Source: Heptranchias perlo
Lineage: Eukaryota
DNA: 64,000 bases
NCBI RefSeq assembly: GCF_035084215.1
Contig: NC_090359.1
Location: forward strand, 15,872,001 to 15,936,000
Reading direction: 5' to 3'
Position numbers and translations under genes: made by a program. Below, one piece after another: positions 3,431 through 39,120 of the stretch; the first letter of the stretch is position 1; each line of letters starts with the position of its first letter. The notes under the pieces were generated by a model, which was given only the letters and a program-made list of their open reading frames with translations, was not told the DNA's origin and made no database searches.

Positions 3431-3431
3431 G

Positions 3432-4334: not shown

Positions 4335-4868
4335 GGATAAAGTATCACATAATAGACTTGTTTTAAAAATTGAAGCCCATGGGATTAAACGGACAATGGC
4401 AGCGTGGATATAAAATTGGCTCAGGAGCAGAAAACAGAGAGTAGAGGTGAACGGTTGTTTTTCAGACTGGAGGCAAGTACACAGTGGTGTCCCCCAGGGC
4501 TCGGTATTGGGACCACTGCTCTTTTTGATATATATTAATGACCGGGACTTGGGAGTACAGGGTATAATTTCAAAGTTTTCAGATGACACGAAACTCAGAA
4601 ATGTAATAAACAATGTGGAGGACAGTAACAGACTTCAGGAGGACAGAGACAGACTGGTGAAATGGGCAGAAACATGGCAGATGAAATTTACTGCAGAGAA
4701 TTGTGAAGTGATACATTTTGGTAGGAAGATTGAGGAGAGACAATATAAACTAAATGGAACAATTTTAAATGGAGTGGATGAATAGAGAGACCTGGGGGTG
4801 TCGTTACACAAATCTTTGAAGGTGGCAGGACAAGTTGAGAAGGCTGTTAAGTAAGCAAATGGGGCCCT
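4335..4868 (+). mobile_element. CR1 LINE reverse transcriptase fragment, broken at 4868
   Basis: ORF 4447-4785 SGVPQGSVLGPLLFLIYIND...KFSDDTKL; inverted paralog at 56960-57490 continues beyond the break. Confidence 0.85.
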
Positions 4869-4899
4869 GAAAGACATCCAATCGTTTCAAAACAGCGAC

Positions 4900-5790
4900 T
4901 TTTTTTTCTTTTTCTTTTTTTCTTCTTTTTTGTGTGTTTTTAGGCTCCCCTTTTATAAGAAGGGGGGTTTAGGGTTTGTTTATGTGCAAAAACACCCAAA
5001 GAAAACCAAAAACCAGTGTCAAATTAAGATTTTATTATTTTTGTCCAGAATGCACTCCAGCCCCTGCAGTGCCCACCGGTCGGGGAAACCGGGGAGTAAG
5101 TGAACTCCAGCTCCCCAACTCACCCGGCACCGTGCCCAGAGACCGGGAGAAGGGGCTCCCTCCACCCACACCGCCACCAACCGACCTGGCAGGTGAGACG
5201 TTTTTATTAAAACCGTCCACTAGGTCGAGCAGGTCCTGGGAGATGTCGAGCCGCGAGCGGGCGAATTCAGCCTCATCGGCCTCGCCCACCCCGGCAACCA
5301 GGACGCCCGACCCGGTGAACTGTATACTCTCCTCCGTGCCCGGATCCGCGACCCCCCTCATAGGCAGGGTCTCCCCATCCCCCCCCGGGAGGCACGGACT
5401 CGGTCTCCTCCCCCCGAGTGGTGGACGACTCCCGCCGATGGTGTGAAATGGAGGGTGGGGCCCCAGGATCCGCGTCAGGCGCCAACTCCCCTTCCACGGG
5501 GGGCCGTCCCTTTGCAGGGTTCCAGTCCGCTTCCAGGGAGTGGCGCCTTTTTTTCTTTCCGGAGGCTCGCGGAGGGAGGGTCTGCTGGGGCCCCCTCCTC
5601 CGCTCCCTCCTGACCAACGATCTGCCCGGCCTCCGTCGCGACCACGAGATGTAGATCGGCCGCGGTCACGATCGCAGCCTCGGGCTCACTCGATTGTTCA
5701 GCATCCCGGGGACCAGCCTCCAGATGTTTGATTTTCCTCCCTGCCTTTTTTCCGCGAGAGTGCCCTCCTTCCCCCCCGGCGGAGGCCTTG
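4900..5790 (-). mobile_element. Tx1-clade internally deleted element (ORF1 middle fused to ORF2 3' end + 3' UTR + A-rich tail)
   Basis: ORF1-like RLDISQDLLDLV joined at ~5080 to the ORF2 end (...WALQGLECILD); 3' hairpin at ~4943-4967. Confidence 0.85.
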
Positions 5791-6104
5791 TGTTGTTTTT
5801 TTTATTCTTCGAGTGTGTTCATGTGCAGTAAACAATAAACCCAGAATATGTGTCATAATAATTTTTTTCCCTTGTGTTTTCGGCCCTCTTTCATAAGAAG
5901 GGGGGGTTTGGGTGGTTTTTTTTGTCGACTGGAAGTTCAGTCAGAATTAGGCTTTTTTTCCCCCTTTTTCCTTGTGTGTTTTTAGGCCCCCCTTTTATAA
6001 GTAGTGGGGGGGGGGTTCAGGGTGTGTTCATGTGCAGTAAACCAAAAAACCCAAAATAAGTGTCAAATAATAATTTTTTTATTTCGGTCCAGGATGCACT
6101 CCAG
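5791..6104 (-). mobile_element. Short Tx1 3'-end fragments and tag string
   Basis: Three 3' UTR pieces each ending in oligo(A), plus a piece resembling the element 5' region (5929-5944 vs 9842-9858). Confidence 0.75.
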
Positions 6105-6130
6105 TTTCGTCTAGTTTTCTCGTTTAGCCT

Positions 6131-6176
6131 CATCTGGGACAATTGGAGTCAGTTGACTGCAGGTTGTGTATAAAAG
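6131..6176 (+). promoter_or_regulatory. ZP3-like gene 1 core promoter: three E-boxes and TATA box
   Basis: CATCTG 6131, CAATTG 6140, CAGTTG 6150, TATAAAAG 6169-6176, 51 nt upstream of ATG; E-boxes (FIGLA sites) are typical of ZP promoters. Confidence 0.6.
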
Positions 6177-6219
6177 GTGCTGGTTGGTGGGTAAAGTGAT
6201 AGTTGAGTTGTTTGGTATC

Positions 6220-9028
6220 ATGGGGGATTTTGTGGTGAGAGGTTTGTTCCCGGTGCTGGTGTTAGTTGGAGTGGTTTGTTACTCTGACATTTGGCAACAG
6301 TTTAGAGGGCAGAGATTTCCATGGAGAAGAGTAAAACCCACCCCTGTGCCCCAGAGAGTCCCTTCCCCTGTGCCTCCCTTTGGTTCCCATTTCAGTGTGT
6401 CTGAGGGGAGAAGTCTGTCCCCACTGCAGACTGTGATGGTGCAGTGTGGAGAGCAGAACCTGCTGGTGAGGGTAGACATGGATTTATTTAGAACCAGGCA
6501 CCTGATTAAAGCTGCTGACCTGACCTTGGGGACAGCAGGTTGTCGGCCAACTGGGATCCACTCTCAGAACCACACTGTCCTCTTTGACTATGGGCTCCAT
6601 GAATGTGGCAGCAGATTGCAGGTAATGTGATTCCTCAACTCTTGCTCCAATTTCACTGTGTAGATTACTGCCCACTCAGAACTCATTAACATCGGGTGAA
6701 ACTCCAGCCACTGAGGAGATCCCTGAATGAAATCTGTGTATAAATTCTTGCCCACTGTTAAATATCACCCTGTGTGAAACTACTTCTTTATGTTGACATG
6801 TCAATCTTAGCTTTATATTTAAAAAGAACTTCAAATTGTCACTGAGGGACTGCATCTTTCTTAAATGGGTCATTACTACTCTAACTCTGAGATTCAACTC
6901 TATTGGCCTTGAACCTTCACCTACATTTCTCCAAACCACTCTGTTCTTTTGTGCCTCAATTGATTTATCTTTTCTGTGCCTTCCTGTGGATATTCAGGCC
7001 TGTTGCCTCAACTTGTGGTCAATGAATGTTCAGTGTGGAAGTTCCTGTTGAGACTTCTCTTGAAAGATGAAACAAGTGGAATAATAATTGGGATACAATG
7101 TATTAAAGGGGAACTCCACTTTTGGTTATTACACCTGCCAATCCCCTTGATTCCATGGATACAGGTGAGGTTTTAAAGTGATGTTGTGTTTTGTGCTCCA
7201 TATCAGGGGTAACTTGAAGCCCCTTAAGGTGAAAGCTCTATTCTATATGGGAAAGAATGCTCATCAAATCTGGCAGTGCCAATCATTTCAGGGTTTCTGA
7301 CTGCAGGCCTGAAGTCCCCTGTAATACAAGGTGGACTGAGCAGAGTAACAGAGGCTGCTCCAGGCAACTTCAACCAATGGTGGAGCTGCTTCAATCATGT
7401 GTGATTGAGGAGCAGCTAAAACCCCTCAAACTGCTGTTTAACAGGGCAGGAAAATGACCAGAAATAGCTCTTGTCCAATAAGACCAGCTCTTCATTCCTT
7501 AAGCTGATGTCTTTCAGATGGCTGGAGATTTCCTGGTCTATACCACCCACCTGAACCATACCCCAAATGCTCGTGGATCTGTCATTGTGAGAACTAATGG
7601 AGTAGTCATTCCCATTGAGTGCCACTATTTTAGGTAAGAATCTTTACTCTATTGCAAATGAGGTCTACAGGAGGTGCAGTTCTCTGAAGTTGTCCTGAAA
7701 TTACACGCCTGTCCTTCCAGGAAGGGCAATGTGAGCAGTGACCCTATCAAGCCCACCTGGATCCCATTCAGCTCGACCAAGTCTGGAGAAGGGCTTCTGT
7801 CATTCTCACTGTGTCTTATGAATGGTATGTGATGTGTGGATGGGGAGTGCTTTTCTGTCGTCTCCCACTGGGAGTTACACCCACTGTCTCCAACCCTTGT
7901 CCTCTTGTACTTCAGATGACTGGCTTACAGAGCGCACCTCGACTGTCTACTACCTGGGTGACCTCATTCACATTGAGGCCTCTGTTTCGATGACCAACCA
8001 CATGCCCTTGAAACTCTACATTGACAGCTGTGCAGCTACATTGAGCCCAGGCAAGGATTCCACCCCAAGATACAACATCATTGACTACCATGGGTAAGGA
8101 GCTCTCTGCCTATTCCAGCTGGTTATGTCCCAAAGGTTCACTTAATTCACTTTGTCTGTTTTTTTAATCTTTCTTCAGTTGCCTCCTGGACAGCAAAGCT
8201 GAGGACTCCTTTTCAACCTTTGTGTTGCCAAGAGGTGAACGTGAGCTGGACAAACTCCAGTTTGATCTGGATGCATTCCGCTTCTTTGGAGATGACCGTT
8301 CCCTGGTAAGAGGAAGCCAAACATTGGGTTCCCCATGTTGGGAGGAGGTCACGAAATAACAACTTGTATTGAATGTGTTCCTCAGATTTTCATCACCTGT
8401 CACCTGAAAGTTGCTGCAGTGGATCGGAGAGATTCCATGAACAAAGCTTGTCCTTTCCAGAATATGTAAGTTCCCTCTCTCACTCAGGGATGTGTTGTAT
8501 TAAAGGGTGATGGACAACCTGGTTGATAAACTGATTCTCTGGTTTAGCTCGACCCCATTGGAAGAATTGACCAATGACGTGTGCGCCTGTTGTCATCTGG
8601 GCAACTGCAGTGCGAGGAGGGAATTCTGACTTGATTCCAGAGGAAGGAGGGATCTTGTGTATCTGGACCTGGTAGGACATTGATCCTCTCTGTGTTGGTG
8701 GTCACCCTTTACCCTCTCTAACTGGAATGTTTGATATTGCAGGGAGTGATGCTGAATTGAAGTGGGAGGGTGAAGCCTCACTTGGACCCCTGGTCATTCT
8801 GGATCCTGAAGTGTTAGAGCTGGCAACTGAGCCCCTTAATGATGTTGAGCAAAGGATGCAGGAGAGGTCTCCAGGTGGTGAGTTGGCGGACTGCTGGTTT
8901 CCATTTTCCCCTCAATATTTCCTTCACTCACTGACCATTGGTTTCTTCTTCCGTTTTAGGTGTGGAGTCTGAGGTGGTCCTGATCCTGATCCTGGCCCTG
9001 ACTGTGACCGCTGTCTCTGATCTCTGCT
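6220..9028 (+). pseudogene. zp3: Zona pellucida ZP3-like gene copy 1, disrupted. Exons 6220-6621, 7518-7633, 7721-7824, 7916-8093, 8179-8305, 8386-8465, 8548-~8671, 8743-8877, 8960-9028
   Basis: Signal peptide, ZP-N (VQCGE...LHECGS), ZP-C ([27 protein letters not shown]), GT-AG introns; in-frame TGA at 8627-8629, 2-bp indels relative to copy 2 in exons 7 and 9, last exon cut by Tx1 tail. Confidence 0.88.
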
Positions 9029-9920
9029 TTTTTTTCTTAGGCCCCCCTTTTATAATTAGTGGGGGTTCAGGGTGTGTTTGTGCAGAAAACCGAAAACCAA
9101 AAACCAGTGTCAAATTAAGATTTTATTATTTTTGTCCAGGATGCTCTCCAGCCCCTGCAGTGCCCATCGGCGGAGATGGTGTCGCCATATTCCATCGAGC
9201 TACACCCACCCCAAGTCTCAGGCCGACTAATAACAAAGGCCTTGCAAAAGAAAACCTCCTCTCCCCAATTCCCACTGTGTTTGGAGAGGGGCTCCTTTGC
9301 AGGATTTTGTAAAAAAGAATATCCGTGATAGTGGGAGGGATGGTCGAATGGGAAGGAGGGAGTCTGCAGGGGTGGGCTGCTGCAGAAGTGGGTGGAAGAG
9401 GGGCGGGGTTGCACCTTAACAGGTGGATCTTCTGGTGGGCAGGGGGAGGAGATGTCTTCCCCTAGACAGCTGGAGCTGCCCAGTCCTCCACAGATTGAAA
9501 AGTAACTTCACCCAGGCAGCTCCAGCTGTCCTGGGCCAGACACTGGGGGGGAAACCCCCTGTTCTGTATGATCTTTCCTCCCCCTACCTTCAGTTGGTCA
9601 CACTGCACCGCACCGACCTCCTCTTCCTCCCTCTGTTGGATGGTATCGGTCAGCAGCAGTACACCCCTCACAGTGAATGGTGGTCTTCTTCTTCCTCCTT
9701 CCTCCCTGTTGGTTGTTTGTTCCTCTCCTTCTCCTTCTCCTTCTCCTGGATTCAGAGGTATACAAGCGAGGGCTGGTACTTTTCACCCTGCTCTCCACCC
9801 AGAGCTTTAACTCTGACCTCTGCTCTACTCAGCAGTATTAACTGGCAAGTTCAGTCAGGCTGATTCCTGGATGGATTGATGGTCTGTCTGAAAGACATCC
9901 AATCGTATCCCAACAGTGAC
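9028..9920 (-). mobile_element. Bipartite non-autonomous Tx1 derivative (~0.9 kb): 5' UTR + first ORF1 codons fused to last ~60 nt of ORF2 + 3' UTR
   Basis: ATGGCGACACCATCT (MATPS, 9189) joined at ~9170 to TGGGCACTGCAGGGGCTGGAG; 5' UTR homologous to 20540-21250. Confidence 0.85.
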
Positions 9921-10200
9921 TCCTTATTTTTTCTTTTAGAAATTTATGAAATAGGACAATGGAAGTGATTGAACGAAAGGAGCATCCTAAAGACATTGAG
10001 TTGGATCAAAAACAGTTTTTTACTATTTTCACCACTCCGCTCAGCTCAGGAGTGTGGGATGGAAGAGCAGCCGGGGGTTTTATCAGCTACTCTTTTTCTG
10101 ATGAGTCTGAAAGACATCCAATCGCATCAAAGCAGTGACCTTTTTGCTGTTTTTAGCAGCCAGGATTTTTTCGCGACTTTTTTCCATTCCCAACAGCGAC

Positions 10201-13200
10201 ATTTTTTAGGCCCCCCTTTTAAAAGGAGGGGGATTTCGGGTGTCTTTTATGTGCAAAAATCCCAAAGAAAAACCAAAACCAGTTTCAAATTATAATTTTA
10301 TTTTCCTTGTCCAGGATACACTCCAGTCCCTGCGGTGCCCACCGGTCGCGGAAAGCCTCAAGCGTACCGGCAGACACCGCGTGCTCCATCTCCAGGGCCA
10401 CCCGGGCGCGAAGCATTCCGTGGAAGAGAGGCAGACAGTCCGAGCGACCGCCCCCACGGGCCGCAAGCAACCTGGACCTGTGGATGGCCACCTTGGACAG
10501 GCCCACGAGGACGTCCGCCGGCCTGCCCGCCCCCCTCCTCACCAGGCGGCCAAAGATCAGGAGCGTGGGACTGAATTGCAGCCAGAACCTGAGGAGCAGC
10601 CCCTCCAAATAATCACAGGGGCTGCAGTCTCCCACACCCCGTGAACAAATGAAACACGGACTCCTCCAGGCCGCAGAAATTGCAGGCGGCCTGGGAGTCC
10701 GTAAAATGGCGTAACCGCCGGTTGCACGCGACTGCTCCGTGCAACACTCTCCACCCCAGATGCCCGATGTAACACGGGAGGATCCCCAAGTAGAGAGCCC
10801 CCCCACTGGGGACCCCCGCCTCTGCCGGATGGCAGGCCAGGGCGTGTCCGGGCGAGAGACGAGGGCGAGGAAGTGGAGTGTGTGCAGGAGCAGCCCGTAC
10901 AGGAAATCCCTCCGTGCGGAGTGAAAAGGCACGGAGGGAATTTCCCAGACAGCTCAAGTTGTGAGGCGCAGCCTCCCGAGCCAGATTCAGCGGAGCGTCC
11001 AGCCGGTCGGCGTCCTCCGGGCTGACCTTTGGCAGGTCCTCCCACAAAACTCTGCGCGCTTCCTCACTGGACGGATCAGGAGAGAACAGAGCCTCGTAGT
11101 AGGATCGAGCCCGGGCCCTGACTCCCTCCGGGTCCGAGACGAGGGACCCGTCGTCGGCCAGCAGCGTAAGGAGATGCTTTTCCAGCGAAGTCCAGTTGCA
11201 GGTCCCTCAGAGCGTCCTTCTTCTCTTCGTACACCTGCCGCAGGACCGGAGCGGTCCCTCGCCTCGAGGGTACGGTTAAAATCCCCCCCGAGGATAATGC
11301 ACTCGCCGGCGTCGACGGAGTTCAGGTAAGTGGACACTTCTTCAAAGAAGCTCACTTGCTCGGCTCCGGACCAGGGGGCGTACACGTTCACCAGGTGAAG
11401 CGGCACGTCCCCGTGGCGAAGGGCTACGTGGAGCAAGCGGCCCGGCACCGGCTCCTTGACCCCCAAGATCTCCGGCTGAAAAGTCGGGGCCAACAAGATG
11501 GCCGCCCCGCTCGAAACGCTGGCGAGGTGACTCAAGGAGACCCCCCCTCCCCATTCCAGGATCCACGTGGCCTCGTCTCCCGGAACGGTGTGGGTTTCCT
11601 GCAGAAAGCACACCGCATACTTCCCGTCCCGAAGGACCGAGAACTTGTCAAATCTACGGCGGGCGTCTCTGCCGCCGTTGATGTTGAGGCTGGCTATGGT
11701 TATCTCCATGGCAAGAGCACAGCGCAACCTACTTAAACCTAATGCGCGGAGGGAGCGGGGCCGCTAGTCGACCTCCTCTCCCCCCAAGAGCCCGGTGAGG
11801 AGGGATCTGAGCCGGCGCAACCCGACCCCGCCGCCGTCCTCCTCCGCGGCCACGGACGCGACGGCGGCCCGGACCGAGCGGATTAGATGCACCGGCTCCG
11901 ACCAACGGTCGAGGGCCAGCCGGACGCCATCGCGACGATGGGTCCAACCGGACACAAAATCCCGGAGTTCCTCAACGGGGATGAGGGGAGACTCGGTGTC
12001 GGGCACGAGGGTGTCCGCCGCCGCCTCACTGGCGGCGAACTCTAAATCCTCCCCAGTGCCCACCACCGAGTCCCCGACCTCCTCCGGGCCATCGTCGCCC
12101 GCGGCCGACCCACTCCCCGCACAGGGTGCGGAGAACGGGACGGCCGCGCCGGCCGGCCCCGCCTCCGCCACGATCCCACCCCCAGGATCGTCGGCAGAGG
12201 ATTCCTCCCCGGGCTCCACCGGGGGGTCCGGGTCAGAGGGCGGCTCCGGGCGAGGACCCTCCCCAGCCTCCGAGCGGTGGTAAACGGGCACCCGGATATA
12301 ATGGGAAACCGGGGAACCCGGGGAGAACATATATTCCAGCTCTCCAACCTCCCCCGGCTCCGTGCCCAGAGACTGGGAGAAGGGGGTCTCCCCACCCACA
12401 CCGCCACCGACCGACCCGGCCCGTGACATTTTCGTGTTAAAACCCGCCACCAGGTCGAGCAGGTCCTGGGAGAGGTTGAGCCGAGGGCAGACGAATTCGG
12501 CCTCGCCCGCTCCGGCACCCAGGACCCCCGACCCGGTGAACGGGAAGCTCGCGTCGGCGCACGAATCCGCGGCCCCCCCCTTTCGGCAGGGTCTCTCCAT
12601 CCCCCCCCGGGAGGCACGGGCACGATCTCCTCCCCCCAAGAGGTGGATGACCCCCGCTGGCGGTGGGAAATGGAGGGTGGGGTCGCAGGATCCGCTGCCG
12701 GCGCCGACGCCGATTCCCTTTCCGCGGGGGGCCGTCCCTTGGCAGGGTTCCCCTCCGCTTCCAGGGAGCGGCGCCTTTTCTGCCTTCAGGAGGGTGGCGG
12801 AGGGAGGGCGAGCCCCATGTCTGCTGGGGCCCCCCCCTCCGCTCCCTCCTGAATACCCGCCAGCACGGGCCCTGCCGCGACCGCGAGTTGCCGTTTGGCC
12901 GCGGTCACGACCACGGCCTCGGGCTGGCTGGAAGGCTTTCCAACCCGGGGACCAGCCTCCTGATGTTTACTTTTCTTCCGCGCCTTCTTAGGGCGAGGGT
13001 TCCCTCCCTCTCCCCCGGCGGAGGCCTCGTCGGCACCCTCCGCCCGCGCAGTTGACTCTCCCGACGCGGGGGCGGGTTTGGGGGGAGGAGCGGTGGCGGC
13101 GCCAGCCTCGGCCGCCGGAGCTGCTTTGGCGGCCAGGGAGACGGGGCAGTTCTTCCTCAGGTGCCCCACCTCCTTGCAGGCATGGCACCGCCCACCCTCT

Positions 13201-14490
13201 GCCGTCCAGAAGACGTGGTAGGCGGTCCCCTCGTGAATGATACTAAAACCCCCCTCTGTCACCTCCTCCCGCACCAGCTTAACAAACGCCTGGCGCCGGA
13301 AGGAGTACACGTGACGGAGGCTGTTCTCCCTGAGGCCGAGCGTCAGTGGTGTCAACCCTGACCTCACCTCCCCCAGTTGACGTAGATGGGGGAGGAGGAG
13401 CTCGACCGGTAGAAAGGGCGGGACGTTCGATAACACCACCCGCTGCGCGGTGGCCTCCAGCGGGTCCACCGGCAGGAAGGTCCCGCCAACCGTGAGCCCC
13501 TTATTTAGGGCCAGGGACACCGTCCGCTCGGACCTCAGGAAGAACACTGCCCTCCCATACATTTTCGAGGCCGCGACGATGGCCGAGGGGCCGACAACCT
13601 CGGCCATGGCCTTCACGCAGGCCTCGATGGTCATATTGGGGTGAGCATAACATTTCACCCCATGGAGCCTCGTCAAGAGGCGAAATGGCGCCGGCCCAGC
13701 AGGAGCGTCCGAAATCGAAGGCGCGGCCGCCGTGGCGACCCCCGCATACGTCCTGCTGGGACCGGGGACCGGCGAAGATGGCGTCGCCATGGTCTCAGGC
13801 CGGTGGATGGCAAAAAATGGCCTTGTGTTCAATGTAAATAGAAACCGCCTCTCCCCTGTATCCCAGTACAAGTGTGGGAGAGGGGCTCCTTTGTCCGATA
13901 TTTGGTTCTGTCTTTGTCTGAAGCTACTGCTCAAAAGAGCACGAGAGCAAGAGAGGGAGGGATGGCACAGGGAAAACGGAGGGAGTCCGCAGGGGTGGGC
14001 CGCTGGGGAAGTCGGCCAAAGAGGGGCGGGGTGGCACCTTCTTCTGGCTTCTTTCTTCCGGTGGGCGTGGAGGGGAGGAGATGTCTTCTCCTAGACAGCC
14101 GGAGCTGACTCGGCTCAGTCCTCCACAGATGACAAAAGTAAGGAACTTCACCCAGGCAGCTCCAGCTGTCCCGGGCCAGACACTTGGGGGCGGAATCCCC
14201 TGGTCGAAAAAGATCTTCTTACCTCCCCCGACCTTCAGTCGGCCACCCCGATCGCCGTCGACCTCCTCTTCCTGCTGTTTAAGGCTGACAGCAGCAGCAG
14301 CACACCCCTCGCAGCTGCCTGATGTTTTTCGCCTCCTTCTTTCTTTCTCCCTCCTTCCCTCTCGATGGCTCTCCTCTCCTCTGTGCTCTGCACCTGCTTG
14401 CAGCACTTCCGCAAGGCCACACTCGATTGGCCGGCAAGTGGCTCGCCAATACCGACCGGCCCCAGCACTCTCCTCACAGGCTGGGAAGTT
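10201..14490 (-). mobile_element. Tx1-clade element with RT domain deleted (ORF1 13790-~11740 frameshifted; APE N-terminus 11709-11240; ORF2 C-terminus 10985-10285)
   Basis: ORF1 with CCHC knuckle CHACKEVGHLRKNC; APE motifs SLNING, LQETH, NVYAP, GGDFN; C-terminal CNFCGLEESVFHL; no YADD. Confidence 0.92.
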
Positions 14491-14587
14491 GTTTTTTTTT
14501 TAAATTAGGCCCCCCTTTTATAAGAAGGTGGGGTGTGGGGTGTGCTTAACAACTAAAAACCAAACAAACCAAAACGAAGAGTTCAAA

Positions 14588-17500
14588 TCAAAATTTTATT
14601 ATCCTCGTCCAGGATGCACTCCAGCCCCTGCAGTGCCCCCCGGTCACGGAAAGCCTCAAGCGTACCGGCAGACACCGCGGAGCAACCCGCGAAAGAGGCA
14701 GACAGGCCGAGCGACCGCCCCCACGGACCGCGATCATCCTAGACCTGCGGATGGCCACCTTGGACAGGCCCAGGAGCAGGCCCACGAGGACGTCCACCGA
14801 CCTGCCCGCCCCTCTCCTCACCGGGCGGCCAAAGATCAGGAGCGTGGGACTGAAGTGCAGCCAGAACTTGAGGAGCAGCCCCTCCAAATAATGGAACAGG
14901 GGCTGCAGTCTCTCACACCCAGTGTACAAATGAAAAACGGACTCCTCCAGGCCGCAGAAATCACAAGCGGCCTGGGGGTCCGTGAAATGGCGTAACCGCC
15001 GGTTGCACGCGACTGCTCCGTGCGCCACCCTCCACCCCAGATCCCCAAAGTAACACGGGAGGACCCCTGTATAGAGAGCCTCCCACTGGGGACCCCCGTC
15101 TCCGCCGGACGGCAGGATGGCACGCCAGGGCGTGTCCGGGCGAGAGACGAGGGCGAGGAAGTGGATGGTGTGCAGGAGCAGCCCGTACAGGAAATCCCTC
15201 CGCGCGGTGTGAAACGGCACGGAGGGAACTTCCGAGAGACAGCTCAAGTTGTGAGGCGCGGCCCTCTGAGGGAGGTTCCGGGGTTTGGCGCCGAGGAGGA
15301 ATTCAGTCCGAACGGGGGTCAGGTCGGACGGGATGGCTCCGCACGCTTGAGCCGCCTCCACACCCCGAGTGGAGTCAGGGCCGAGCGCCGATTTCAACGC
15401 CTGGATGGCGGCGGCCGCGTCCCCGGCACGCCACGAGGACATGCGAGCGGCGAGCGCCCACGGCTCGAGCCAACCCGACCCACCGCCATCCAGGACGTCC
15501 CTGACTCTGGTCACCCGACCGGCCACAGCCCTCCGCTCCGTCAGCCACGAGTGGCCGAAGCCGACATCGCGGAGGAACGGATTCCCGAGCAGCGGCTCCT
15601 GCAGGACGGCCGCTACCCCCGACGGGTGAGAGCTCCGACCGGAGGCGACCATGTTCCAGACCCTGAGCAGATTCTGGTACAAGACAGGCAGCTCCTGCAA
15701 AGACATGCGGCCGTCCACCAGCGAGACGAACAGGAGCTGCGTGTCGTAGTTCAGGCCGTGCAGCTGGCGGAAAAAGTACGTCGCCAGCGCACGCCATCTA
15801 AGAGGACGCTCAACGTACAGGTATCGCCGCAGCGTCCGAAGGCGGAAAGTTGCCACCTGGGTGCGGACGCACACCAGCCCCTGACCGCCCTCCCTAAGCG
15901 GGAGACTCAGGACTGCGGCAGCGACCCAGTGTATCCCTTTGGCCCAGAAGAAGTCGACGAACTTCCTCTGAATCTTGGCGACAAAATCAGGGGGGGGGGT
16001 CAAAGTGACCAATCTGTACCACAACATGGCGGCCACCAGCTGGTTTATGACCAGCACACGACCCCTGTAGGATAACACTCGGAGCAGTCCTGTCCAGCGC
16101 GCCAGGCGAGCGGCGACTTTGGCCTCCAGCTCTTCCCAGTTCGCCGGCCAGGCTTCCTCGGCAGGGCCGAGGTAGACTCCCAGGTACCGGAGGTGCGTGG
16201 TACTCCAGGCGAAAGCCCTGAGCTCCTCCGGCATGGAGTCCACCCGCCACTGACCCACCAGGAGTCCGGAACATTTCTCCCAGTTGATTCTTGCGGAGGA
16301 CACGGCAGAGTAGACCTCTTGGCACTCGCGCATCCTCCGCAAGTCAAGGGGATCGGTGACCACGAGGAGCACGTCGTCGGCGTAAGCCGAAAGGACGACC
16401 TCCACGCCCGGCTCGCGCAGAGCCAGTCCCGACAACCTCTTTCGCAAGAGGCGCAGGAAAGGCTCCACGCAGACGGTGTATAATTGGCCGGACATGGGGC
16501 ACCCCTGACGCACTCCTCTCCCGAAGCGAAGGGGCGCCGTCAAGGATCCGTGAACCTTAATCAGACACTCCGCGGCGGCGTACAGAAGTCGGATCCGGGC
16601 GACGAAATGCGACCCGAACCCGAAAGCGCGCAGAGTCCCGAATAGATACTCGTGATCCACCCTGTCGAACGCCTTCTCCTGATCCAAGGTAAGGAAGGCG
16701 ACCGACAGACCAGCCCTCTGGGAATGGTGGATCAGGTCCCGGACCAGGTGGATGTTATCGTGGATCTTCCGACCCGGGACCGTGTAGGACTGGTCGGGGT
16801 GGATCATGTGGGCCAGCACGGTGCCCAGGCGAGCAGACATCGCCTTGGCAAAGACCTTATAATCCGTGCTGAGGAGGGAGACCGGGCGCCAGTTTTTAAG
16901 GTTGCGGAGATCCCCCTTCTTAGGCAGCAGGACCACGACCGCCCTGCGCCACGAAAGGGGCATCTCCCCGGTCGCCAGACATTCCCCCAGGACCCGCGCG
17001 TAGTCGCCCCCCAGGACGTCCCAGAAGGCCCTGAGGAACTCCACGGTCAGCCCATCCAGCCCCGGGGACTTGCCCCTGGAGAGCTGGTGGAGGGCGCCGG
17101 TCAGCTCCGCCAAACTGAGCGGAGCGTCCAGACTGTCGGCGTCCTCCGGGCCGACCTTCGGCAGGTCCTCCCACAAAACTCTGCGCGCCTCCTCGCTGGA
17201 CGGATCCGGAGAGAACAGAGCCTCGTAGAAAGATCGAGCCCGGGCCCTGACTCCCTCCGGGTCCGAGACGAGGGACCCGTCGTCGGCCAGCAGCGTAAGG
17301 AGCTGCTTACGAGCCCCCCGCCGCTTTTCCAGCGAGTAGAAGAAGGGAGAGCCGCGGTCCAGGTCCCGCAGGAGCTGGAGCCGCGACCTCACGTACGCTC
17401 CTCGGGACCCGACCAGTTGCAGGTCCCTCAGAGCGTCCTTCCTCTCCTCGTACACCTGCCGCAGGGCCGGATCCTCGGCGGCCTGACCGAGACGGGACTC

Positions 17501-18461
17501 CAGGCCAAGCACCTCCTGCTCCAACCGCCTGACCTCGGACTCCCGCCTCTTAGTCGACCCCCTCGCGTACTCTTGACAGAAGAGGCGGACGTGAGCCTTG
17601 CCCACGTCCCACCAGAGCCTCAAGGAGGAGAAGCCTCCCCGCTTCCCTCTCCAGTCGCTCCAGAACAGACGGAACGAGTCCCGGAACCGCGCGTCCTCCA
17701 GCAGCCGGTTGTTAAAGTGCCAGTACGCGGACCCCGACCGGGCGCGGAGCAGAGCGAGCTCCATCCACACCAGGTGGTGGTCCGAGCACGACACCGGCCG
17801 GATGGAGGCCGACGGGATGCAGGAGGCGTACGCCCGCGAAACGTACAGGCGGTCGATTCTGGAGCTTCCCCCCTCCGGCCCTCACAAAGGTGAACTGGCC
17901 GGAGTCGGGATGGAGATTCCGCCAGACGTCCACCAAGGCGAAGGACCCGACCAGGTCCCTCAACTTCTCCGCCGCCGTTCGGGCACGCGCGGGACCGGAG
18001 CGGTCCCTCGCCTCGAGGGTACGGTTAAAATCCCCCCCCCCGAGGATAATGCACTCGCCGGCGTCGACGGAGTTTAGGTAAGTGGACACTTCTTCAAAGA
18101 AGCTCACTTGCTCGGCTCCGGACCAGGGGGCGTACACGTTCACCAGGTGAAGCGGCACGTCCCCGTGGCGAAGGGCTACGTGGAGCAAGCGGCCCGGCAC
18201 CGGCTCCTTGACCCCCAAGATCTCCGGCTGAAAAGTCGGGGCCAACAAGATGGCCACCCCGCTCGAAACGCTGGCGAGGTGACTCAAGTAGACCCCCCCT
18301 CCCCATTCCAGGATCCACGTGGCCTCGTCTCCCGGAACGGTGTGGGTTTCCTGCAGAAAGCACACCGCATACTTCCCGTCCCGAAGGACCGAGAACTTGT
18401 CAAATCTACGGCGGGCGTCTCTGCCGCCGTTGATGTTGAGGCTGGCTATGGTTATCTCCAT
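14588..18461 (-). CDS. Tx1 ORF2 (APE endonuclease + reverse transcriptase + C-terminal Cys/His domain); frameshift near 17870 and ~30 bp deletion near 14680
   Basis: MEITIASLNING, LQETH, GDFN, SDH; KSPGLDG, NWRPVSLL, DQEKAFD, GVRQGCP, YADD; CDFCGLEESVFHLYTGC. Confidence 0.93.
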
Positions 18462-18490
18462 GGCAAGAGCACAGCGCAACCTACTTAAAC

Positions 18491-26159: not shown

Positions 26160-26464
26160 ACAGAGATGTTATCAGATTCAGTTTGAGGACTCAATAACTG
26201 GGATGACATTGGAGGCCATTGTTGGATCCAAGGAGCCGATCAGTCCTTTGAGGAAAACAACAGCAATGACATCACAGAATAATCATCCAATCCTGCCTGT
26301 ATTCCAAAGCTCTGATTGGCTCTGGGAATCAACTCGCCCCCTCTCTCCTTTGTTAATTGGTGCCTGGATTCATGGAAGATTCCTGATTGGCTATCAGGGA
26401 TTGTCAATCATCATTGGTGATGTCATACCCTGTGTAAATGCAGGCTGTCCCAGTAGTATCAATA
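26160..26464 (+). promoter_or_regulatory. Ferritin 2 promoter; TATA altered to TATCAATA (26457-26464)
   Basis: Paralogous to ferritin 1 promoter, CCAAT boxes retained. Confidence 0.6.
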
Positions 26465-26545
26465 CAAGAGCTTGTGAGGGAAGAGGTTAGGTTGTTTCAT
26501 GCAGTGGTGTTTGAAGTGAGGTTTCTGTTAACAGTAAAAGTGAAG

Positions 26546-28768
<2,223 letters not shown>

Positions 28769-30761
28769 CTGGACTGTTGTCCATGTTGCAGATATTCAAC
28801 TTGTGTATTGAAGTTTTATGTTGCCATCTCTCTGAACTGGGAATGGAATTCAAAGTCTAAGATTAACTTCCAAACATTGTAGTTGAGTGTTCTTGCAGCT
28901 GAAATAAAACATTTTGATGTTGAACTGGTTCCTTTTCTTCAGTAATTGAGCACATTCTAACACCAATGCACGTGGCCTTGCGTCAAACAAAAAAACATTC
29001 TAAGAAATAGGTTGTCACCGTGATAAAATCTGATTTGTTTGGGCACATGGATGTTTTAACCCCTTCCCCTCCAGAAGGCTTAATTTGGTTTTGTAGCAGC
29101 CTAGGATGGCCATCAGGCCAAAATTAGATTTGTACCTAACAGCTTTCAATATTTGGTGTTCTGTAGTAGAGATTAAAGTGTAATCTGATTACAGTAAGAC
29201 CTCTTCCTCCACATAGGCTTGAATCCCTTTTGGAGAGTGTGCATTTTTTTATTACTATTCGTTCATGGGATGTGGGCATCAATGGTGATTACAGTAGTTA
29301 ACCTTCTGAATAAACAACCCCACACATTGCTGCTGACTTGTCCATTGTAGGACATGAGGGAAGTGTTCCCTGAAGCAGGTATTCAAATTTAAGTAGTTAC
29401 AAAAATCCTGGAGCAAAGTAAGACCAAATCTCCAATTGTTCCTGCTAGGGTTACCTGGCTCTTTCCTCCTTCTCTTCAGCCCATCTTTTTCTTCCTGTGC
29501 AGAACTTTGGTCCAGCTCCTGCTATTTGTTTCAATCTCAATTTTTATTTTCCAGTCTCTGTTCACCTCATGCACCTTTTATATCCTGGACCCCATAGCCT
29601 CTAAAATACTTCCATTTGCTGTTGCAAATCTAAGAGCCCCTCTAAGTTTCCCTTGCTGGATTGTGTTTCATTAAACAGTTCTTGACCCATTCCCCTCTCC
29701 TTGCGAATACAATCTTTGTGTAATCTTATTTGGCCTGGAACCAAATAACACTAGATCCCAATTGCCAAAACTGCCACTTGTCAGTCCACTGAAGAGTTGG
29801 AGAATAGAGCCATCTAATTAAAGGCTAAACCACCAACTACTTGGTCTGTTTAAAGCTTTAACTGAGTTTGCACCAGTGATGTTCAGGTTATTCTCACACA
29901 GGGATCATATGATCAGATCAGTCCATCGACCCCACTTTTCATTGCTTCATCTTTCCTTCACTAGGTTCCACCTTTGATTTTTTTTTAGCCTGCTGTTTGT
30001 TGTTGATCCGACAGTATTCTGATGTGATCTGGAACACAAAATATCCACGGAGCCCCATCCTTCCCTGACCGGATTTAGGGAAATATCAGTAACTCCCCTT
30101 TCTAATGAGAAAATTCACCACTCGACTCTTTCCACTTGGTGTTTGACTGTCCAAAAAGTACAAGAGATTAATCATTGAAACAAGGGATTACCAAACCCAG
30201 GAAATACCAGATAGTCTGTTCACCACTGTCGCTCACTGTATATACAACCAACACTACACACAGTGTTTGCCTCTCACCGCAATCCCTCCCAACACCAAAC
30301 CCCCCACCCCCCAAATCCCTTCAGTCAATGGTCCACAGTCTCTTCCCCGTGGAGTGCTCTGCATTTTATTGTTTGTAAAATGTCATGATGACAAAACAAG
30401 AACTCAACATGCCGTGGCCCCCTTCACTTTCCAGCCGATGTGTGTACAGATGCTCACTGACCCTAGAATTGATGGAGTATTGAAGGACTTGTGTTTAACA
30501 CGTTCATCACACCCACTTTCCATTCGCCTGACTCGCTGTTGGTTGTTGTTCACAGGCTCTGATCTGTTTGGATGTTGCCTCAAACCCGCAGCTACTTGCC
30601 AAATAACCAACTCACGGATCCATCCAGAATTATTCAAAGACACTGACCCGCAAACAACAATTAAACCTGTGGTTCTGGATCTTTGAACCGTCACGATCAG
30701 TGACCATAACCGATGGGATGGGGGCAGATCCACCAATTGACAATTTGGTCCATTATGGTCA

Positions 30762-31010
30762 AGTGCCCGGGTGGCCCCGGAGAGGGAGCATGTGGTGTCC
30801 ACCGTTACGCTTGATGCCTTCCGCGACCGCTGGGCACCGCAGGGTATAGACTGTCTTTCAGACATCAATAATAGAATCCTGATTTAATTGGGAAAGTATC
30901 CTGTTGTTTTTGGTGGCACTTGATGCTTATTTTGGTATCTTTTCAGTTTGATTGGACCATCCAATATTAGTGGTGCCCTGAGAGGGCCACTTGTGATGGT
31001 TTATGTTTGG
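30762..31010 (+). mobile_element. 3' fragment of a different Tx1 subfamily
   Basis: Encodes ARVAPEREHVVSTVTLDAFRDRWAPQGIDC...ILI-stop, like the ORF2 end, with a different 3' UTR. Confidence 0.75.
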
Positions 31011-31090
31011 TGACCCTGGGGCAACCCAGAGTCTCCCTTATTGGTCCATCAAAGAAAGGTCGATTATGGTCAAGAATATGGTCACTATCA

Positions 31091-31308
31091 GATTTTTTTT
31101 TCTTTGGAGTGTGGGATGGAAGAGCAGCCATGGTTTTTTTTCTTTTCCTTTTTTTGTGTTTTAGGCCCCCCTTTTATAAGAAGGGGAGGGGGGGTTTGGT
31201 TGTGTTTATGTGCAGTAAATCAATAAACCCAAAATAAGTGTCAAATTATAATTTTATTACATCGATCCAGGATGCACTCCAGTCCCTGCGGTGCCCACCG
31301 GTTACGGA
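31091..31308 (-). mobile_element. 5'-truncated Tx1 3' end with tag-containing tail, flanked by CAGATTT
   Basis: ORF2 end + hairpin (31163-31190); cagattt at 31089 and 31311. Confidence 0.8.
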
Positions 31309-31310
31309 AA

Positions 31311-31531
31311 CAGATTTTACAGTTTGAGGAAAGTCAAAGCAATTGGATCTTTATTGAATTGTCAGCCAATGATGCTCCTCCTTCAAAGTTCTGACTGGCT
31401 CTGGGTGTCATCTCCCCTCCTCCCTTTTCTTGATTGGTGTTCTGAGAGAGGATGTAATTTCTGATTGGGTATTGCCAACTGTCACTCATCATCTAGGCTG
31501 CCACGCCCAGGATTAACCAGCAGTATAAATA
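31311..31531 (+). promoter_or_regulatory. Ferritin 3 promoter: CCAAT/ATTGG boxes and TATAAATA (31524-31531)
   Basis: Several CCAAT/ATTGG motifs; TATA 82 nt upstream of ATG. Confidence 0.6.
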
Positions 31532-31605
31532 TGGAGCTTTGAGTGGCTGTTTTTCAGTTTCTTGCTTCAATAGAGTTGTTTAGTTTTGTTAAAGTTAATT
31601 TAAAG

Positions 31606-34158
<2,553 letters not shown>

Positions 34159-35524
34159 ACTGACTGCAGGGATAAAGCTTATTGTTCAGTACTCCTGTTT
34201 ATAGTCTGAAGAACCCCTATCCTGTAGCAATGGTGACTTTGTACTAAGAGCTCTGAGACCTGGGCTCTTGATGTGAAATGTAATAGTAACTGGAAATAAA
34301 CTGTTACAGAAGACTGGGTTTTGGCTCCTTGTAAATTGAGTGATTGCTTATTTTTCAGATTAACATAATTCAGCTGTTGTAACAAATTACATTGGGCTAT
34401 GTATTGGCTTTAGGGTGAGATTCTGCCCTATGACATTTTTTCTTCTGGGGTCATATCAATGTAGTGACTTGGGTGTTGAGGGCCAATGTGTCTGCCTTGA
34501 GTGTAAATTGTATTTATGCAGTAAAATGATTACTGCTGATTTCAATGCAAAGAACAATACAGTAATGAGTTACTGTTCCTATTAGTACTGCATATTATCA
34601 ACTGTTTAACTCATTAATGATGCAAAATCAGCTGCTGTAACATTTTGTTCCAATAAAACACAAGGAAAGTGAACTAGTAATTTCAGTCCAATAGGCAATT
34701 TTTTTAAGAATAGTATCTGCCTGGGGAAGAACAATCCAGATGCTTTTTTTTCAAAGATGCTACAGACCTCAGTAGGTAGTTGGGGTAGCTTATGAAATCA
34801 CTCACTATTACTCCTAATAAACTGTTTGTTTGGAGTCAAATAGGTCTCATATGGGGGAGTGCAGGTTCCCTGTTTGTCTATTTCCCTTCATTTTCATCTT
34901 CTGCCCCCCCAACCCCCTGTTAATCTCCCCCATGAATAATAAATTGGGTATGGTACAGAAAAAATACCTCGAACTAAACTCCAGCAAACAAAATCTTCCT
35001 TCTGGGAGACGTAGTAAATGCACCAAACAACTAACTTGAACCATTAAGTTGAATAGATAAGGCTCCTAAACTCTTCCATACCACTACTGTTCGATCAATT
35101 CATAAACCCAATATAAGCAGCTCATCCATAAATCTATCAATTTGTATTTATCCCATTGTGCAGTTAATACTAGATTACAATTCTAAATTCTACTGGATCA
35201 CCATTTCATTTAAACCAAGTTAAATAGATATTTTGCCTGAAACTCCACATCCCAATGCCATCAATTCATAAACACAATACAATCAGCTCCTCCATAAATG
35301 TGTCGATTTGCCTATAGTCCTATTGTGCGTTCCATACCAAATTGTAATCAACCTTTCCAAATCCTATGGGTTCTCCATTCATCTCCTTCACCCCTATGAA
35401 TGGATTCAAATGTTGATGCTGTAGCTGTAATTATCCAGTGTTTCCAAGTGAAGTTTAGGAACTTGTGACTTGCACTGGGTGTGATAGAATTGCCGTCTTC
35501 AGTCAGTCCATGTTAATATCTTTA

Positions 35525-35959: not shown

Positions 35960-36320
35960 AGTCACTGTTGTAAGGTAAGAAATGCGGCAGTCAATTTGCC
36001 TCCAGCAAGGACCCAAAAACAGCAATGAAATATTGACCTGATAATCTGTTTTAGTGATGTTAGTTGAGGGATAAATATTGGTCCAGATATTGGGGAGAAC
36101 TCCGCTGCTCTTCCTCGAAATAGTGCTGTGGGATATTTTACGTCCACCTGAGAGAGCAGATGAGGCCTCGATTTAATATCACATCCAAAAGACGGCACCT
36201 CCGACAGTACAGCACTCCCTTAGTCAGCCTAGATTATGTGCTCAAGTCTCGAGATGATGACTTGAACCCACAACCTTCTGACTCTGAGGTGAGAGTGCTG
36301 CCACTGAGCCACAGCTGACA
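35960..36320 (-). mobile_element. SINE (possibly Deu-domain type)
   Basis: tRNA-like head on minus strand near 36260-36320; recurs elsewhere in window. Family assignment is from memory. Confidence 0.55.
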
Positions 36321-36749
36321 CAAATGGAGATGTTTGTGTGGGTGACATTGCATTCAGTAATCTTCACTGCCTCTCATTCTCGCTGAATATCCTGAATTTT
36401 ACCAAACAACATTTCATGAGAATCAAAACTAAAAATGATGCATCCCACAATGCTTTGCCCAGTTGATGCCCCCATGCTGCCAATCCTCAGACACACCCAT
36501 TCTCTATATTAGAACTGGGGACGATTCACACCATCCATGGGATGGAATTTCCATTTCTCTGACCAATGGATGGTTTGCAAATTCACTCAAGACAACTTGA
36601 TTGCTTTGAATATTGTCTCAACATCACAATCACTAACAAGTAATAAACTTGACCAGATTATGAAAAGCCACTTCAGTGAAAATATCAAATTATTATCAAA
36701 TAATTCAAAGTTATGATACCAAGAGATTGAAACAAAGAGAAACTTTCAG

Positions 36750-38595
36750 ATTTTTTGTTTTCTTTTTTTTTCACTTTCAGATTTATTTTTTTCCTTTTTT
36801 ATTTTTTTTTTATTTTGTTAGGCCCCCCTTTTATAAGAAGGGGTGTGTGGGGTGTGCTTAAATACTAAAACCAAACAAACCAAAACCAAGTGTTCAAATT
36901 AAAATTTTATTCTCTTCGTCCAGGATACACTCCAGCCCCTGCGGTGCCCACCGGTCGTGGAAAGCCTCGAGCGGACCGGCAGACACCGCGTGCTCCATCT
37001 CCAGGGCCACCCGGGCGCTGAGCATTCCGCGGAAGAGAGGCAGACAGGCCGAGCGACCGCCCCCACGGACCACGATCATCCTAGACCTGTGGATGGCCAC
37101 CTTGGACAGGCCCAGGAGCAGGCCCACGAGAACGTCCACCAACCTGCCCGCTCCCCTCCTCACCGGGCGGCCAAAGATCAGGAGCGTGGGACTGAAATGC
37201 AGCCAGAACATGAGGAGCAGCCCCTTCAAATAATCAAACAGGGGCTGCAGTCTCGCACACCCAGTGTACAGATGGAACACGGACTCCTCCAGGCCGCAGA
37301 AATCACAAGCGGCCTGGGTGTACGTGAAATGGCGTAACCGCTGGTTGCAGGCGACTGCTCCGTGCAACACTCTCCACCCCAGATCCCCGATGGAACACGG
37401 GAGGATCCCTGAGTAGAGAGTCCCCCACTGGGAATCCCCGTCTCCGCCGGACGGCAGGATGGTACGCCAGGGCGTGTCCGGCCGAGAGACGAGGGCGAGG
37501 AAGTGGATGGTGTGCAGGAGCAGCCCGTACAGGAAATCCCTCCGCGCGGTGTGAAACGGCACGTAGGGAATTTCCGAGAGACGACTCAAGTTGTGAGGCG
37601 CGGCCCCCCGAGGGAGGTTCCGGGGTTTGGCGCCGAGGAGGAACTCCGTCCGAACGGGGGTCAGGTCGGACGGGATGGCTCCGCACGCCTGAGCCGCCTC
37701 CACATCCCGAGTGGAGTCAGGGCCGAGCGCCGATTTCAACGCCCGGATGGCGATGGCCGCGTCCCCGGCACGCCACGAGGACATCCGTGCGGCGAGCGCC
37801 CACGGCTCCAACCAACCCGACCCACCGCCATCCAGGACGTCCCTGACTCTGGTCACCCGACCGGCCACGGCCCTCCGCACCGACAGCCGCGAGTGGCCGA
37901 AGCCGATATCGCGGAGGAACGGATTCCCGAGCAGCGGCTCCTGCAGGACGGCCGCGACCCCTGACGGGCGAGAGCTCCGACCGGAGGCGACCATGTTCCA
38001 GACCCTGAGCAGATCCTGGTAAAAGACAGGCAGCTCCTGCAAAGACGTGCGGCCGCCCACCAGCGAGACGAACAGGAGCTGCGTGTCGTAGTTCAGGCCG
38101 TGCAGCTGGCGGAAAAAATACGTCGCCAGCGCACGCCATCTAAGAGGACGCTCAACGTACAGGTATCGCCGCAGCGTCCGAAGGTGGAAAGTTGCCACCT
38201 GGGTGCGGACGCACACCAGCCCCTGACCGCCCTCCCTAAGCGGGAGACTCAGGACCGCGGCAGCGACCCAGTGTATCCCTCTGGCCCAGAAGAAGTCGAC
38301 GAACTTCCTCTGAATCTTGGCGACAAACTCGGGGGGTGGGGTCAAAGTGACCAATCTGTACCACAACATGGCTGCCACCAGCTGGTTTATGACCAGCACT
38401 CGACCCCTGTAGGATAACACTCAGAGCAGTCCTGTCCAGCGCGCCAGGCGAGCGGCGACCTTGGCCTCCAGCTCTTCCCAGTTCGCCGGCCAGGCTTCCT
38501 CGGCAGGGCCGAGGTAGACTCCCAGGTACCGGAGGTGCGTGGTACTCCAGGCGAAAGGCCTGAGCTCCTCCGGCAGGGAGTCCACCCGCCACTGA
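36750..38595 (-). mobile_element. 5'-truncated Tx1 element (3' third of ORF2 + 3' UTR + A-rich tail)
   Basis: ORF 36894-38420 closely matches the C-terminal part of ORF 14588-17794 and has an intact end (...LECILDEENKILI). Confidence 0.93.
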
Positions 38596-38617
38596 CTTAC
38601 CAGAAAACTGGACGAAA

Positions 38618-38941
38618 CTGGAGTGCATCCTGGATATCCACAGGTCCAGGATGCTCGCGGTCCGTGGGGGCGGGTGCTCGGCCTGTCTGCCTCTCTTTCG
38701 CGGGTTGCTCCGCGCCCGGGTGGCCCTGGAGATGGAGCACGCGGTGTCTGCCGGTACGCTTGAGGCTTTCCGCGACCGGTGGGCACTGCAGGGGCTGGAG
38801 TGCATCCTGGACGAGGAAAATAAAATTTTAATTTGATGCCTGGTTTTGTTTTATTTGATTTTTAGTACTTAAGCACACCCGACACCCCCCCCCCTTCTTA
38901 TAAAAGGGGGGCCTAAAAAACACAAAAAAAAGAAAAAAAAA
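38618..38941 (+). mobile_element. Tx1 3' end in opposite orientation, tail abutting ZP3-like gene 2
   Basis: ORF 38651-38836 = ORF2 C-terminus; hairpin 38886-38913; A-rich tail. Confidence 0.9.
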
Positions 38942-38943
38942 GT

Positions 38944-39102
38944 GTGCTGGTTGGTGGGTAAAGTGATAAAAGAAAAAGAAACAAAGGAAAAAAAAAGAGA
39001 AAAAAAAAAGGTGCTGGTTGGTGGGTAAAGTGATAAAAGAAAAAGAAAAAAAGGAAAAAAAAAGAGAAAAAAAGAAGGTGCTGGTTGGTGGGTAAAGTGA
39101 TA
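38944..39102 (+). repeat. Three copies of 25-bp ZP3 leader GTGCTGGTTGGTGGGTAAAGTGATA separated by ~42-nt A-rich spacers (67-bp period)
   Basis: Copies at 38944, 39011, 39078; single copy at 6177-6201 in ZP3 gene 1. Confidence 0.9.
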
Positions 39103-39120
39103 GTTGAGTTATTTGGTATC

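Follow-up and report, generated by a model that had tools for sequence, protein, structure and literature searches.

A Tx1-clade retrotransposon family of Heptranchias perlo prefers promoter flanks and has parent copies in ZP3 and ferritin arrays

The 64,000-nucleotide stretch of the Heptranchias perlo genome (3.25 Gb) analysed here, hereafter the window, spans positions 15872001-15936000 of the contig C38, and positions below count from its start. It carries two ZP3 genes (Pfam ZP-N), three ferritin genes and the promoter of a fourth one (Pfam Ferritin), among which about ten pieces of a single Tx1-clade family of long interspersed nuclear elements (LINE) were detected by self-BLAST (Table 1). 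It had been predicted from this stretch that the family homes to the promoters of multicopy ZP3 and ferritin genes active in oocytes, as well as to the 5' ends of its own copies, implicitly by means of a target-specific endonuclease. Self-BLAST and reading of the sequence found a piece of the family at every site so proposed, and none between 42 and 64 kb. The clustering is thus real, but the target is promoters in general, not those of ZP3 and ferritin alone, and the mechanism is unlikely to be that of a sequence-specific endonuclease.

Some junctions of the window had to be redefined. The motif present at 4867, 9888 and 10109 corresponds to the ZP3 promoter itself (-75 to -40), as revealed by the empty alleles L098 and L099. 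Consequently, 4905-6145 constitutes one nest within the ZP3-1 promoter, in which the fragment 5950-6105 holds a transduced piece from the 5' end of an older sibling. Positions 6104 and 31310, initially taken for insertion sites, are 5' truncation points, the 3' junctions lying at about 5983 and 31161, and the insertion at 10201, thought to be a plain one into a sibling 5' end, carries ZP3 promoter pieces. The one at 14491 is a true insertion into the 5' end of a sibling, and the proposed preference for such ends is supported. The full-length element inserted there has its own 5' end at about -250 of ferritin 1, divergent to this gene. Two features had been overlooked, namely the insertion in the fourth ferritin promoter (36400-36752, at about -229) and the sense fragment at 30762-30966. 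Since empty alleles place 4867, 9888 and 10109 in ZP3, and 36400-36752 in a ferritin promoter, the association is tighter than first described. The insert at 31.1 kb is flanked by a 7-bp duplication (31089-31095 and 31311-31317), and repeated poly(A)-X units follow the Tx1 3' end at ZP3-2 (38636-39074). The exon joins modelled for ZP3-1 and ferritin 1 were out of frame.

Table 1. Tx1 pieces and host genes in the window (positions from the window start; offsets relative to the host gene).
Feature	Position	Strand	Remarks
ZP3 promoter segment -75..-40 (CCAAT)	4867..4898	+	left flank of ZP3-1 promoter nest; matches empty ZP3 promoters L098/L099
Tx1 3' end, antisense; junction at ZP3 about -35/-40	4905..5088	-	
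Tx1 ORF1 fragment within ZP3-1 promoter nest	5081..5791	-	self-BLAST
Two more Tx1 3' fragments in nest	5813..6105	-	
ZP3-1 gene, last exon interrupted; TATA ~6168, ATG 6220	6166..9030	+	Pfam ZP-N; spliced contigs
Tx1 3' end inside ZP3-1 last exon, at +2856, antisense	9028..9170	-	
5' UTR of old-type Tx1; 5' end next to ZP3 promoter sequence, about -75	9165..9885	-	
ZP3 promoter pieces with poly(A/T) tracts between them (flank plus transduced tail)	9886..10200	+	
Tx1 3' part with internal deletion	10202..11250	-	
B-type element, 5' half: 5' UTR with CCAAT/ETS motifs, ORF1, ORF2 start	11239..14490	-	
Full-length Tx1, ORFs frameshifted	14490..21256	-	3' end in sibling's 5' end at 14491
Ferritin 1 promoter (TATA 21505) and gene	21262..24313	+	Pfam Ferritin for exon 2; splice joints
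Ferritin 2; promoter without Tx1	26247..28776	+	L131
Old Tx1 3' fragment, sense, upstream of ferritin 3	30762..30966	+	
Tx1 3' fragment at ferritin about -218, with transduced ZP3 promoter piece (about -140)	31089..31317	-	
Ferritin 3	31323..34162	+	
Fourth ferritin promoter, upstream half, cut at about -229	36400..36752	+	empty allele L138
Tx1 3' 1.8 kb	36753..38603	-	tail poly(A)-X-poly(A)-X'; X and X' derived from distinct ferritin paralogs
Sense Tx1 3' end at ZP3-2 +4/+5, in place of TATA and upstream promoter	38636..39074	+	
ZP3-2 gene	39075..41923	+	94% to ZP3-1
ORF, open reading frame; UTR, untranslated region.

The coding capacity of the family was deduced from an intact copy located outside the window, which encodes an ORF1 of 680 amino acids and an ORF2 of 1301 amino acids combining an apurinic endonuclease-like (APE) and a reverse transcriptase (RT) domain. 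ORF2 matched Pfam Exo_endo_phos and RVT_1 and was 49.8% identical to Xenopus YTX2 over 1291 amino acids, while ORF1 was 50% identical to Xenopus YTX1 over residues 30-230. No homolog of the C-terminal segment of ORF1 was retrieved at E<=0.01, and direct alignment showed this segment to be conserved in Tx1L. Together with the hallmarks of the clade (poly(A) tail, target-site duplication and 5' truncation), the family is, judging from its sequence, a member of the Tx1 clade of retrotransposons without long terminal repeats (non-LTR). Intact copies retain the whole endonuclease domain, whose hairpin loop comprises 8 residues with a glycine-rich tip, vs 11 in Tx1L; a longer span than here was present in 59 of the 60 homologs with the motif. 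This loop shapes selectivity in L1/Tx1L chimeras (PMC1950540).

ZP3 exon 1 and the ferritin promoter gave 253 and 221 first-look candidates, respectively, and the scored matches for both queries fell within C38 (9.1-17.7 Mb), on some of the unplaced contigs or in a ferritin array of tandem units on a different contig, C43 (4.27-4.78 Mb), with 58 TATA boxes in 400 kb and a period of about 5 kb. Both gene families have thus undergone very strong expansion. In the sampled part of the ferritin array, Tx1 accounts for 22% of the sequence. After segmental duplicates had been collapsed by flank similarity, 21 of the 26 distinct 3' junctions in the 400 kb of C43 lay within -700 to +50 of a TATA box (p 3e-14), a zone representing 13.8% of the sequence once Tx1 was removed from the ruler, vs 0 of 6 junctions of a control LINE. 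Likewise, 19 distinct junctions were counted on 464 kb of C38, of which 17 touched a ZP3 or ferritin promoter or body (13% of the sequence, p~1e-13), against 0 of 7 for the control LINE. The preference for ZP3 and ferritin promoter flanks is therefore strong, as had been proposed, and it is seen again in a separate array. Of the 58 ferritin units on C43, 33 had Tx1 in the promoter and 5 in the gene body. Among the 30 ZP3 loci most similar to ZP3-1, which share common ancestry, it was found between -500 and +100 in 26, vs none between +100 and +1950. Furthermore, no Tx1 match occurred in 171 kb of background, nor in 52 random stretches covering partly the same DNA. Insertions recurred at the same nucleotides, namely -90 and -228 in ferritin promoters and +5 and -35 in ZP3, and exact sites were re-used across several subfamilies.

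Such accumulation could in principle arise without targeting, if elements inserted at random and were then subject to segmental duplication and gene conversion, with selection relaxed in the redundant arrays. Indeed, the copy at 36.8 kb has its junction and flank in common with 26 of its 30 best matches, which are thus segmental duplicates, and identical tails occur in several tandem units of C43. However, the enrichment persists once duplicates are collapsed, is restricted to promoters as compared with introns and spacers, and is absent for the control LINE; besides, nests of insertions occur at single-copy genes, where selection should oppose them (see below). An absence of targeting is therefore very unlikely and already largely refuted.

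Several observations were made on the organization of these arrays. At two C38 loci (L084 and L086), short polyadenylated fragments of the ZP3 5' region are re-inserted at ZP3 +5 without any element body, one of them including the first bases of the Tx1 5' UTR. The ferritin block located in the ZP3 cluster (window 21256-36800) has Tx1 at ferritin promoter sites on either side, and a chimera of ZP3 promoter, Tx1, ferritin promoter and ferritin gene lies at C38:14777000-14784300. Ferritin genes of the C43 array may have reached the ZP3 cluster through recombination between promoter-embedded Tx1 copies.

Genome-wide, the 3' hairpin of the element was found 680 times, with a density of 0.12-0.19 per Mb on C1-C4, and the arrays hold 8 of the 71 3' ends in two complete hairpin-variant lists, 4 more being on unplaced contigs. 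The proposed restriction to multicopy oocyte genes thus did not hold, since most copies are dispersed and single-copy promoters of housekeeping type are repeatedly targeted. As regards whether copies are simply distributed as those of other LINEs, they are indeed mostly dispersed, but with an excess at promoter flanks relative to the control LINE. From a sample of 123 dispersed loci, 86 gave a target duplication and 76 were kept for site analysis. Duplications were mostly of 11-16 bp, with a mode of 14 bp, and no target motif was found at these 76 sites other than a starting A, which is partly built into the duplication search. One full-length dispersed copy (L028/L381, C30:36.83 Mb) is flanked by a target duplication of 209 bp, and its 5' end carries 9 nt that belong to a ferritin promoter.

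These relaxed targets bear on the idea of an APE endonuclease that reads motifs of the ZP3 and ferritin promoters. Tx1L, the closest named relative, is sequence-specific, and the recurrent nucleotides in ferritin (-90/-228) and ZP3 (+5/-35) could be read as the signature of such an enzyme; yet these sites share no motif besides the starting A, the 76 dispersed targets are unrelated, and insertions fall at dozens of distinct positions in a given promoter. With no target consensus and a loop both shortened and glycine-tipped, an enzyme of this kind appears extremely unlikely. Insertion at pre-existing breaks, i.e., meiotic or transcription-linked double-strand breaks at promoters, instead of nicks made by the element itself, would account for the 3' ends that lie back to back at 36.8-38.9 kb, where promoter sequence has been lost, and for the ZP3-ferritin chimeras. 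Nevertheless, the short target duplications of 86 of 123 dispersed copies and their A tails are characteristic of endonuclease-primed insertion, and intact copies retain a complete endonuclease domain, which makes an origin in breaks highly improbable.

The surroundings of the dispersed copies were compared on 118 non-overlapping loci with repeats masked and two thresholds. A non-repeat CpG island (300 bp with >=20 CpG, within 700 bp) adjoined 24 of the 118 copies but none of the 52 random or the 30 control-LINE sites (p 1e-6); with a looser cut, the corresponding values were 29 of 118, 6 of 52 and 1 of 30 (7 of 82 controls together). The promoter preference was present in every subfamily. Moreover, nests of 2 to 7 copies were observed at 14 of the 118 loci, for an expectation of at most 0.7. 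According to Pfam matches of their first exons, genes beside nests are UQCRFS1-like and RNase H1-like (two nests), and a histone gene lies beside a single copy. For two other nests, the neighbouring genes are putatively SCARB2-like and TMEM179-like. Insertions at the UQCRFS1-like promoter have a recurrent target word, and the youngest subfamily lies closest to the promoter with older ones outward, suggesting that the choice of site is imposed by the host over long periods. As a separate observation, independent insertions were found just above TATA-like boxes in apparent LTR sequences of two families (L035, L199/L200, L037 and L246).

An aspect absent from the original prediction is that source copies lie in the arrays. 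A conserved word of the 5' UTR gave 152 matches, and among the first 100, 80 were on C38 and 9 in a third duplicated region, designated U. Six of the C38 5'-UTR loci were inspected, and each of them adjoins promoter sequence of ZP3 or ferritin. Region U is a segmental duplicate that occurs on six or more of the numbered contigs, besides several unplaced ones (L315, L316, L318, L319, L321-L329 and L380, on C13, C16, C23, C32, C37, C49 and unplaced contigs); it has a piece of ZP3 intron 1 and precedes the 5' ends of B-type elements, in front of which more than 12 insertion positions were counted in about 700 bp. Several contigs carry U close to their end, and it contains E-boxes, its status as a promoter being putative. 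Four intact ORF1-ORF2 pairs were identified in the sample, and intact pairs occur in ferritin promoters and in U. Copies that are intact or bear a 5' UTR are thus concentrated in three regions. The full-length copies of C43 run antisense and begin about 195-296 bp above the TATA box (5' ends), one promoter holding five of them in tandem, and other full-length copies are fused in sense after ZP3 +73.

The parent sites are named by the tails of the offspring. Short 3'-transduced segments were present on 33 of the 76 dispersed copies, and their assignment by hand gave 17 from U or the ZP3 intron-1 piece, 5 from ZP3 and 2 from ferritin, i.e., 24 in total, the remaining 9 having no assignment. Chain counts were also curated by hand, as automated mapping gave false ferritin matches from unmasked Tx1 remnants. 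A tree of element bodies (tails excluded, 34 rows) grouped by parent region, with 4 label changes vs 12.9 when labels were shuffled (0/200). Hence, the arrays and region U hold parent copies of dispersed insertions. An origin of several transduced pieces in ZP3 intron 1 of the C38 genes was considered and ruled out by the existence of U as a separate, multi-contig region. Duplications of about 100 bp of promoter in the tandem arrays were likewise considered as 5' transduction, a reading that is insecure since a 209-bp target duplication occurs at a dispersed site. Regarding ZP3 intron 1, an RNA-like contig begins within it (window 7282-8302), is spliced downstream and starts near positions found in transduced tails; an internal promoter is possible there.

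The tails also raise the question of whether the element RNA guides insertion. Lineages devoid of sequence-specific cutting would take up promoter pieces from a ZP3, ferritin or U locus, as a 3'-transduced tail or a captured 5' flank, and these pieces would pair with nicked paralogous sites as a self-made guide, so that a lineage returns to its own gene family and its poly(A) tail becomes a log of successive host sites. The grouping of the tree by parent region fits this scheme, as do tails of the form poly(A)-X-poly(A)-X' in which the same site derives from different ferritin paralogs (L251; L255, with four in a row; 36.8 kb in the window). About 11 of 25 hops mapped by hand re-use the same site, and none of the 76 dispersed sites repeats its own flank in the tail, which indicates that the chained tails do not arise from slippage at insertion. 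Annealing of RNA to its target has a precedent in SART1Bm and R1Bm (PMC7265360). However, exact sites are also re-used at single-copy promoters by unrelated subfamilies with tails from elsewhere (L203, L195 and L187), and lineages cross classes, from ZP3 to ferritin and from ZP3 to U, which argues against a need for guidance. In addition, kin share labels, hence the tree is no proof of guidance, template jumping between RNAs could yield some chains, and the 209-bp duplication indicates that long flank duplications are possible without homing. Neither guidance of insertion by such RNA nor a tail serving as its log is, on balance, probable.

Expression was considered from four runs presumed to be RNA, representing one sample. 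In run X3, ZP3 depth reached 19,000-64,000 vs 7-223 in the other runs, an excess of about 1000-fold, and the depth at ferritin splice junctions was 2,400-3,800 vs 0-220, an excess of 10- to 70-fold. This hints that ZP3 and ferritin share expression in a ZP3-rich, presumably ovarian, tissue. Contigs spanning element-host junctions were recovered, without strand information.

Taken together, the interpretation that we favour, with a probability of roughly two in three, is that the family has no fixed target sequence and prefers the flanks of RNA polymerase II (Pol II) promoters, likely because its loop-shortened endonuclease nicks the accessible edges of germline promoters, and that its master copies reside in the ZP3 and ferritin promoter arrays and in region U, likely driven by the host promoters they face away from. 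The insertion site would be set by open chromatin or by a host tether, host promoters, either divergent or in sense, would drive the masters, and the oocyte would be the cell type concerned. In such a scenario, the relaxed endonuclease, perhaps with a tether, would nick the edges of promoters open in germ cells, and the majority of new insertions would be dead, truncated copies. A full-length copy with its 5' end towards a strong oocyte promoter would be transcribed, with read-through past its own A tail, and would seed new copies; the redundant arrays would tolerate and duplicate such full-length copies. The arrays would be the largest sinks because they contain hundreds of very active, redundant promoters, and since each new full-length insertion in an array can become a source, the feedback loop would be closed.

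Several results weigh against this interpretation. About 80% of the dispersed copies have no CpG island within 700 bp, and the preference is therefore partial or includes CpG-poor open sites. A first motif and CpG test on the 76 duplication-defined sites was null for CpG, CCAAT, ETS, NRF1, GC box and cAMP response element (CRE), with a nominal excess for TATA (p 0.012) and E-box (p 0.015) only; in this test 10 loci were dropped by design and 37 had no detected duplication, most nests being lost, and repeats were unmasked. Dispersed copies beside CpG islands are only weakly biased in orientation (14 vs 5, p 0.06). Segmental duplicates inflate raw counts, and their collapse by flank similarity is approximate. 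The Pfam scan of ORF1 revealed no tether or reader domain but only a zinc knuckle (zf-CCHC, E 0.0016) under the curated cut-off. Finally, coverage of Tx1 ORF2 in run X3 was just about twofold above that of the other runs, from contigs devoid of strand, start site and reliable level.

Compared with known systems, the family shares with Xenopus Tx1L and Tx2L the two-ORF APE-RT layout, about 50% identity in each ORF and the conserved C-terminal segment of ORF1. The target of Tx1L is one sequence within the Tx1D transposon (PMC1950540; PMC4494074), whereas the present family has no consensus target, favours promoter flanks and has a loop 3 residues shorter. As in Keno, Kibi, Koshi, Tx1-Mar and Tx1-9_AMi, which belong to the same clade, multicopy targets are preferred; however, in contrast to sequence-specific Tx1 elements of the Tx1L, Keno, Kibi and Koshi type, no single target is conserved among the 76 sites and the 11-residue loop is missing. 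A dependence on flanking transcription was proposed for SINEU/Tx1-Mar (PMC4494074). The Tx1 targets listed in the consulted part of PMC4494074 comprise small nuclear RNA (snRNA) genes, 5S genes, microsatellites, satellites and transposons, with no protein-coding promoter among them; the consulted part of PMC9341512 contained nothing further on Tx1 targets. Enrichment just upstream of Pol II genes is in line with Tf1, the P element, Mutator and mPing, which prefer regions upstream of protein-coding genes (PMC6719617). Unlike these LTR and DNA elements, which rely on an integrase or transposase, the present family is a target-primed LINE whose masters are embedded in host promoter arrays. It resembles R1/R2 and SART/TRAS in its residence in tandem multicopy arrays, head-to-tail runs and 3' transduction, features described for these elements together with a dependence on host transcription (PMC4494074; PMC7265360). 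R1/R2 and SART/TRAS use one conserved sequence in ribosomal DNA (rDNA) or telomere repeats, whereas many positions in Pol II promoters are used here, along with dispersal. In comparison with mammalian L1, the transductions are short, very frequent (33/76) and chained. Like the present family, L1 nicks relaxed A-rich sites and generates duplications of about 14 bp and parent-tagging 3' transductions, but it has its own promoter. Mammalian L1 is not known to accumulate at promoters. Its 3' transduction is stated in PMC7265360. No report of promoter-upstream targeting by Tx1 or another vertebrate LINE was found in the open literature, searched through listings and the openings of abstracts, subscription papers and Repbase entries being outside the scope of this search.

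The family shows how a site-specific clade may exchange a sequence target for a chromatin target, with one loop shortened, while still reaching safe, transcribed refuges. As parent sites are written into the chained 3' tails, a single genome suffices to read both the hierarchy of sources and the choice of targets, and nests would flag promoters that stay open in the germline over long times. Tx1 also appears to reshape host arrays, as illustrated by its share of the ferritin array and its position at the edges of the ferritin block in the ZP3 cluster.

Two further features were noted. A minus-strand open frame lies near an old Tx1 fragment duplicated across the cluster (L070, about 9400-9950, ~2.3 kb left of the window start), and may resemble a seven-transmembrane receptor. 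In the window itself, positions 55420-56543 are occupied by a 54-bp tandem repeat whose minus strand has long open frames.

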